Shown here one piece after another: positions 3,736-4,483 of a DNA stretch of 40,477 nt. Location: IMG/VR virus record IMGVR_UViG_2778261450_000004; one strand, 5' to 3'. The DNA comes from a virus (taxonomy: Duplodnaviria; Heunggongvirae; Uroviricota; Caudoviricetes). The notes below the pieces were generated by a model that was given only the letters and a program-made list of their open reading frames with translations, did no database searches and was not told the origin of the DNA. A program made the translations under genes and the position numbers. How positions within the stretch are numbered: the stretch's first letter is position 1; each line of letters opens with the position of its first letter.

Positions 3736-3766
3736 AAATAAAAAGCCCCGCTTGATAAGCGGGGCC
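3736..3766 (-). terminator. Rho-independent terminator downstream of the lom-like moron
   Basis: On the - strand: GCCCCGCTT-ATCA-AAGCGGGGC hairpin followed by TTTTTATTT. Confidence 0.6.
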
Positions 3767-3789
3767 AGACAACAGAGGAAAGGAAATTA

Positions 3790-4326
3790 TCAGAAACGAT
3801 AACCAATACCGGTCATCCAGGTACCTACTTTCACATCGCCCAATTTGGTGTACTCATAGGATGCGTCAACTACCCAATTTGGTACAGGATTAAACTGAAT
3901 ACCAGCACCATATACAACCGAAGTCTTGCTTGAAGAGTCAGAGTATCCCAGAATCGTCGCTTCAGCACGTCCATGCGCTACACCTAATAAGCCATATGCA
4001 CTGAAGTAATCATTGAAACGATAGGCTGGACCGGCAGCTAGTGAATAGTAATCCAGTTCTCCATTTCCAATTTTAGAGCCTGCAAAATAATAATCGTATT
4101 CTTGATTTGTGTACGTAAATGAAGATGTAACGCCCCATTTATCATCCAGCTCATAGCGATACTTAATATTTACCCCTGAAGGATTCTCATCAAGGCTTTC
4201 TCCACCGGCTTTAACATGGCTTTGGGCATAACCAAGAGAAATAGTATTCTGCATCAATTCAGCATTTGCAATGCCAGTTGCAAACAAGGCTGAAGCGATA
4301 ATGGTAGTCAACACTGCTTTTTTCAT
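3790..4326 (-). CDS. lom: Ail/Lom/OmpX-family outer membrane beta-barrel protein (moron)
   Basis: Signal peptide MKKAVLTTIIASALFATGIANA, then VNIKYRYE...SAYGLLGVAHG...YGAGIQFNP...GIGYRF, which matches the lambda Lom / Ail family including the C-terminal Y-R-F. Confidence 0.8.
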   Translation of the reverse strand: MKKAVLTTIIASALFATGIANAELMQNTISLGYAQSHVKAGGESLDENPSGVNIKYRYELDDKWGVTSSFTYTNQEYDYYFAGSKIGNGELDYYSLAAGPAYRFNDYFSAYGLLGVAHGRAEATILGYSDSSSKTSVVYGAGIQFNPVPNWVVDASYEYTKLGDVKVGTWMTGIGYRF

Positions 4327-4483
4327 AAAATCACCGTCATTTCACAAATCATTGTTATAACAGCCAGAATTAATCTGGCTGGCAGCATTAAAATATCCAC
4401 CACATTCGATAGTCAACTATCAATCTCTCATCAAACTATATGTGTGCACATTGTAATTCAGACAATTACTAAAAAATATTAAA

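Follow-up and report, generated by a model that had tools for sequence, protein, structure and literature searches.

The window, by which we mean the whole 40,477-nucleotide stretch of DNA analysed here, is a Rac-type lambdoid Escherichia coli prophage of the ompN-uspF/ttcA locus with an LT-II toxin and a pertussis-like toxin aboard. Across 17 kb it shares 99.5% identity with the SA31-1 prophage of E. coli, in which the LT-II allele is different. The phage is of the Rac-type LT-II converting kind, with kin in strains SA31-1 and D217-5, and such LT-II prophages were reportedly first described by Jobling in 2016. In its tail region, the tail assembly chaperone genes and the tape measure gene are separated by an AT-rich leader, a gene for an Ail-type β-barrel and a predicted intrinsic terminator, and every one of these barrel, terminator, chaperone and tape measure features lies on the minus strand (Table 1). 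The original prediction had located the element at 3736-4483, and these coordinates proved correct.

Table 1. Features of the chaperone/tape measure junction and the predicted late antiterminator, listed in the direction of late transcription (window coordinates).
Feature	Position	Strand	Basis or remark
Q-like late antiterminator (predicted)	22847-23389	-	DUF1133 2e-102; Phage_antitermQ 32.4 bits, cut-off 26
Tail tube gene	5321-6283	-	upstream of G
Tail assembly chaperone, lambda G analogue, ydaY-like	4813-5274	-	PHROG 313, 1e-46; YdaY in relatives' annotation
Slippery heptamer A AAA AAG, -1 frameshift making G-T	4819-4825	-	sequence reading and script; three codons ahead of the G stop
T, read in the -1 frame of G; forms the C-terminal extension of G-T	4484-4825	-	PHROG 1189, 2e-31
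Last 13 codons of T (VSQSKTVDGILIN), read as cassette part and left boundary	4487-4525	-	empty-site comparison
AT-rich leader, 157 nt, presumed regulatory region	4327-4483	-	GC about 0.35
Best promoter candidate, TTGACT (4416-4411), 18 nt, TTTAAT (4392-4387)	4387-4416	-	relaxed scan
8-bp leader hairpin (CAGCCAGA/UCUGGCUG)	4362-4382	-	fold z = -2.8; at the predicted transcript 5' end
Ail-type outer-membrane β-barrel gene, 178 aa	3790-4326	-	Pfam, PHROG, NCBIfam
Predicted signal peptide, codons 1-22	4261-4326	-	inspection
Intrinsic terminator (predicted)	stem-loop 3766 to 3744, U-run 3743 to 3734	-	scan and fold
Tape measure Shine-Dalgarno GGAG	3728-3731	-	2 nt past the U-run
Tape measure gene (H), 1077 codons	487-3720	-	TMP_2 6e-81, TMP_4, Tape_meas_lam_C (Pfam)

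The 178-residue product matches the Pfam family Ail_Lom (PF06316) over the whole barrel (5e-27, 95.4 bits against a cut-off of 23), as well as OMP_b-brl (PF13505; 2e-26, 93.8 bits) and PHROG 108, annotated as 'Lom outer membrane protein' (2e-46). In a sequence search of solved structures, Yersinia pestis Ail (3QRA; 9e-56, 192 bits) was by a wide margin the closest; the corresponding values were 4e-29 and 105 bits for OmpX and 5e-17 and 66 bits for lambda Lom. The NCBIfam equivalog cut-offs for OmpX (134 against 176) and Rck (91 against 258) were not reached. The AF2 model (pLDDT 88) comprises eight strands and a signal helix at 3-16, and Foldseek matches it best to Ail (3qrc; TM 0.95, rmsd 1.2 Å, 54% identity), with OmpX (1qj9) at TM 0.93. 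Judged by inspection, the N-terminus reads MKKAVLTTIIASALFATGIANA followed by E, with an A-x-A cleavage site (A-N-A before the E), and the protein ends in GYRF, whose terminal Phe is the aromatic residue for outer-membrane insertion. By sequence and model, the product is an Ail-clade eight-stranded protein with a predicted location in the outer membrane. The profile and structure searches thus place it inside the Ail/Lom/OmpX family to which the original prediction had assigned it; of the comparison drawn there with lambda lom, the Ail/Lom family membership stands, but within the family the clade is that of Ail and not that of Lom.

Its relatives tell the same clades apart. The barrel shares 54-61% identity with the Ail proteins of Yersinia, Photorhabdus, Proteus and Xenorhabdus and about 33% with lambda-type Lom proteins, and among deposited phage records no protein exceeds 44%. 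Yersinia Ail, which is chromosomal and not phage-borne, resembles the barrel in sequence (54-56% identity to 3QRA/3QRC), in a mature length of about 156 residues and in its eight strands and four surface loops, although the loops themselves are unlike those of the barrel. Leaving aside copies of the cassette, the closest homologues are 67-70% identical and sit in non-phage islands or chromosomes, one of them in a Salmonella fimbrial/EAL island and another adjoining thrS; their position outside phages favours horizontal capture. An orthologue of lambda lom would be expected to resemble Lom closely in sequence and to be placed after J, ahead of the side tail fibre gene; the barrel gene differs in both respects. 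A relocated lambda lom is excluded by the sequence distance and by coexistence with Lom in sister prophages: those of ETEC1703 and S1-INA have an Ail-type gene between T and H plus an intact canonical 199-residue Lom after J, so the two are not alternatives. In the LT-II prophage of SA31-1, just 58 bp separate J from the fibre gene.

The original prediction read the gene as an inserted moron, and comparison with other E. coli genomes bears this out, the DNA between G-T and H being extra in a small group of prophages. The flanking Rac-type tail DNA was found in 1076 of 5426 complete E. coli genomes. The cassette occupies 20 of these 1076 tail regions (20 of the 5426 genomes), in one copy each and at no other site than this junction, and about 1050 genomes have the same flanks without it. 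The distance from T to H is 763 nt in the window versus 163-165 nt at cassette-free sites, a spacer read from sampled cassette-free genomes, the K-12 Rac prophage (ydaY-ynaA) and phage 885R8. Base composition follows the same division, with a GC content of 0.42 in the barrel gene and 0.35 in the leader against 0.46 in the flanks.

Both boundaries can be placed by alignment to the empty site. On the left, homology ends right after the T codons for ...DDQY. Empty-type T proteins (Rac, 885R8) end in FQ(D/E)QCV, the cassette-type ones of all prophages with the 178-residue allele in VSQSKT(V/F)DGILIN, and a third T-end allele in FSQFAKNN; the -1 frame is open for 113 codons in the window versus 106 in cassette-free relatives. 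Because JCKP02 combines an empty-type T body with a cassette-type tail, the breakpoint lies right after DDQY, at about position 4525 of the window. On the right, homology resumes in the U-run. A cassette of about 780 bp (about 3744-4525) hence stands where the empty site has about 180 bp, and, as read from these alignments, it supplies the last 13 codons of T. Two short sequences flank the terminator, the octamer TTGTCTGG (3767-3775) directly before the stem and TTGTCCGG (3732-3739) directly after the U-run, and the empty site has a single TTGTCTGG, located after its own hairpin. Recombination during assembly of the junction may have left the pair behind as a short repeat, or the likeness may be due to chance.

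The hairpin that follows the barrel gene has 10 pairs, seven of them G-C, and runs into TTTTATTTGT. It folds at -18.3 kcal/mol (z = -3.5, with none of 200 shuffles as stable), holds rank 1 among the 60 terminator-like sites listed for positions 1-40000 of the window and ends 23 nt before the tape measure ATG (3720). Rfam returned sub-threshold matches only, all of them resting on this hairpin. The stem, GGCCCCGC/GCGGGGCT, is identical in all four cassette alleles while the loops vary, and it was seen only together with the cassette. Similarly, the homologue in the Salmonella island, outside any phage, has a GCCCCG/CGGGGC-UUUU hairpin downstream. The strong terminator anticipated just ahead of the H start is therefore confirmed as a hairpin with a U-run, and it travels with the cassette in its four alleles. 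Further hairpins with U-runs lie on the minus strand of the late operon at 8119-8106, just after the major capsid gene, at 10217-10198, between head genes, and at 17765-17740; the first two fit differential mRNA stability or attenuation under antitermination.

The leader falls within the lowest-GC stretch (0.35) of the first 10 kb of the window. Its proximal 120 nt or so are conserved across the four alleles and its distal part is divergent. A consensus sigma-70 scan yielded no promoter on the strand of the barrel gene. The best candidate of a relaxed scan (Table 1) matches 10 of 12 positions and misses the -11 A, and an alternative combines TTGACT, 15 nt and TATTTT. The -35-like TTGACT is found at the same place in each of the four alleles, and in each the top-scoring candidate is built on it. 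The candidate's score, obtained with a home-made weight matrix of base frequencies, ranks at about the 85th-90th percentile among 214-nt stretches drawn at random from this phage and so within background. As no promoter rises above background, expression in the lysogen is something we infer. Nor does the same consensus scan detect a promoter ahead of HK97 gene 15, which makes the lack of a consensus promoter weak evidence either way. This leader has no alignable counterpart upstream of the Salmonella and other homologues, so those loci were not the source of the regulatory region. The leader hairpin was also considered as a 5' stabiliser of the transcript; this idea was dropped, as the S1-INA allele keeps only the outer 4-5 pairs.

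The four alleles, all at the same site, offer a view of how the gene has been maintained. The cassettes of LT-II ETEC strains are 99.3-100% identical to that of the window, the JCKP02 cassette 99.6%, that of a pig-ETEC group 93.3% and that of S1-INA 69.5%. The S1-INA barrel, at 185 residues, differs mainly by indels and substitutions in surface-exposed loops, and 7 of the 10 replacements between the pig-ETEC and window barrels fall in the extracellular half. In comparison with the Salmonella homologue dN/dS is 0.14, and with the pig-ETEC allele it is 0.41, which indicates purifying selection on the barrel. The reading frame is intact in 20 of 20 genomes and in all IMG/VR copies examined. It is intact in the ETEC1703 prophage, where IS1 interrupts the tape measure gene and the tube gene carries a frameshift, and in that of S1-INA(-02-A), where the whole early region including Q is lost. 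The ETEC1703 and S1-INA prophages have trkG where the window has LT-II.

A gene with a terminator of its own at this junction has a well-known precedent. Gene 15 of HK97, the first element ever named a moron, is located between the tail chaperone and tape-measure genes (PMC3594210). The junction and the layout are the same: in HK97, G-T ends at 8145, the moron reading frame spans 8203-8391, the terminator 8398-8422, and the tape measure gene starts with its ATG at 8435. The proteins differ, gp15 being a 62-residue inner-membrane superinfection-exclusion protein and the product here a predicted 178-residue outer-membrane barrel, and no homology connects the flanking DNA of HK97 and the window. 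The gp15 terminator (GACCCGCTATCAAGCGGGTT) nevertheless matches the window hairpin at 17 of 19 positions, loop included. Given the absence of flanking homology and the different loops of the other cassette alleles, this likeness is probably a coincidence. In the sense of Juhala et al. and Hendrix, the cassette has the marks of a moron, namely extra DNA, a predicted factor-independent terminator and a deviant base composition. It is a new example of a known moron layout, and the arrangement is not unusual.

We also surveyed 80 IMG/VR loci that encode Ail/Lom relatives, with neighbouring genes labelled by BLAST against a small reference set. Ail-clade genes occurred at five or more tail-operon junctions, among them T/H (in Rac-type phages only), M/L, L/K, TMP/M and the one ahead of DUF6950-J, and nearly all of them had a GC content below that of their flanks and a hairpin with U-run directly downstream. 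Those at other junctions (the Proteus-type x/DUF6950-J, L/K, and M/L as in the Fels-1/Gifsy type) are 39-60% identical to the barrel and sit in different backbones. This recurrence makes the Ail-type gene-terminator unit inside a tail operon a known kind of feature. The Proteus-type cassettes have only -8 to 17 nt upstream, and so some family members may lack a promoter of their own. Lom of lambda, Stx and other lambdoid phages belongs to the same Pfam and PHROG families and is likewise a prophage barrel encoded among tail genes; it differs in its place after J (J/stf), in a GC content like that of its flanks and in having no terminator by the same scan. Lambda-type Lom thus looks like an assimilated resident of its junction, unlike the Ail-clade units. 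The contrast is useful for the open question of the role of Lom and Ail proteins in phages and leaves current concepts unchanged. A full-text literature search gave no match that joins Ail/Lom, tape measure and prophage, although Jobling 2016 may already mention the gene.

Taken together, we consider it probable that the cassette is a self-contained moron, that is, an Ail-clade surface barrel expressed in the lysogen and equipped with its own terminator, read through during late transcription and likely to have a role in host conversion. The AT-rich leader and the strong terminator are the marks of such an autonomous unit. In the lysogen, a weak or regulated promoter in the leader would drive the barrel gene, and the hairpin would halt the transcript before it reaches the tape measure and distal tail genes. 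The product would be exported by means of its signal peptide and inserted in the outer membrane. During lytic growth, a Q-modified RNA polymerase coming from upstream would pass through the cassette and its terminator, giving strong late expression of the barrel gene as well and leaving tail synthesis undisturbed. The original prediction had invoked antiterminated readthrough of this kind, and the idea is plausible in view of the predicted Q-like protein and the further hairpins of the late operon.

As for function, Ail, Rck, PagC and Lom have been reported to act in adhesion or in resistance to complement and host defences, and the barrel would most likely act in the same way. By analogy with these proteins, its most likely role is lysogenic conversion through adhesion and/or complement resistance. 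Against this transfer stands the 54-56% identity of the homologues on which it draws, together with their different surface loops. If so, the barrel would add a third conversion function to the LT-II and pertussis-like toxins in type II ETEC.

The main alternative, in our view an unlikely one, is that the barrel serves the phage and is not a host virulence factor: it would be made mainly late, by readthrough, and would block adsorption of the same or related phages, either as superinfection exclusion or to prevent loss of progeny to infected cells and debris. Over-expressed lambda Lom confers a strong defence against lambda-vir, not against T7, and its level reportedly climbs steeply in late infection (bioRxiv 10.1101/2025.02.28.640651); both observations speak for such a role. 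So do the embedding of the barrel gene in the late tail operon with the same orientation, a position that would ensure its late co-expression with the tail genes, the specific recurrence of Ail/Lom genes at tail-gene junctions, the fact that some of these genes leave no room for a promoter and that none is clear here, and the superinfection-exclusion function of the HK97 moron at the same site. In a broader version, Ail-type barrels would have been captured repeatedly at T/H, M/L, L/K and TMP/M and before or after J for the sake of co-expression with the tail, in a phage-serving, anti-adsorption role; the chance of this being the general rule seems low to us. The barrel would then be abundant late and a trickle in the lysogen, sibling virions would be spared infected or lysogenic cells, and virulence would be a by-product. 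Against a role in the service of the phage, the barrel has no match in PADLOC and resembles Lom much less than it does Ail, a virulence factor of Yersinia. In addition, its reading frame stays intact where tails or Q have been lost, which favours a benefit to the host cell, and the strong terminator and AT-rich leader are those of an autonomous unit. Host conversion and a phage-serving role are not mutually exclusive.

Another possibility concerns the hairpin rather than the barrel. It might belong to the T/H backbone, as an attenuator or mRNA-end stabiliser that lowers the tape measure and distal tail genes relative to tube and chaperone, with the Ail gene having landed upstream of it. The empty T/H junction does bear a hairpin, CCCAC-UUCG-GUGGG, with a U-run before H; in cassette-free Rac-type phages it is equally far from the H start, and a similar tail, (T)TTGTC(T/C)GGAG, follows. 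HK97, too, has putative terminators after several tail genes, one of them just before H. Some punctuation at T/H therefore pre-dates the cassette or is independent of it, and the cassette is not the source of the sole transcriptional punctuation at this junction. The empty-site hairpin, however, has a different stem of only 5 bp, and it is weak, with a centroid of -6.7 kcal/mol that is no better than shuffles. The strong stem, by contrast, occurs only with the cassette and is invariant in its four alleles, the Salmonella non-phage homologue has its similar hairpin, and at other junctions, too, every Ail-type gene comes with its own hairpin. A backbone origin of the strong hairpin is for these reasons improbable. 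By eye, the empty T/H spacer also holds a 28-codon reading frame (MVSLIKSMMLLEKSIAWPRNRYIYYYVA) that ends at the UUCG hairpin, and this spacer may be a mini-moron or a scar.

That the barrel gene no longer has a function, as a neutral or decaying passenger, is very improbable: the rarity of the cassette (20 of 5426 genomes) and the want of a demonstrated promoter would suit this reading, but the reading frame is intact in the 20 genomes and the examined IMG/VR copies, its dN/dS is 0.14-0.41, conservation extends to the signal peptide, the barrel and the terminal Phe, and two diverged alleles at the same site have their changes concentrated in the surface-exposed half.

Apart from the moron discussed above, the prophage carries further cargo. 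Two toxin operons lie in the late region on the minus strand, at 18496-19633 and 21201-22458. The LT-II A subunit matches Enterotoxin_a (3e-116) and the B subunit LT-IIB (2e-41), and a pertussis-S1-like ADP-ribosyltransferase is paired with a weak S2/S3-like B subunit. The SA31-1 prophage lacks positions 17138-18481, and identity to it falls to 90.7% in the LT-II region next to them. Within this missing stretch are a 171-residue reading frame on the plus strand (17783-18298), which has no match in Pfam or PADLOC, and the strong minus-strand hairpin with U-run at 17765-17740. In the early region, 25452-27176 (minus strand) encodes a protein of 574 residues, annotated as DUF2326 in a relative's RefSeq record, with a PADLOC match to PDC-M68B (8e-40) and weak matches to LmuB/PtuA ATPases; going by these profile matches, it may be a prophage anti-phage gene. 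Finally, at 15309-17022 on the minus strand, directly upstream of the terminase genes, a TAGT (TET-associated glycosyltransferase) domain (2e-35) adjoins a ParB_N protein, and the pair could be an accessory of DNA modification or packaging.
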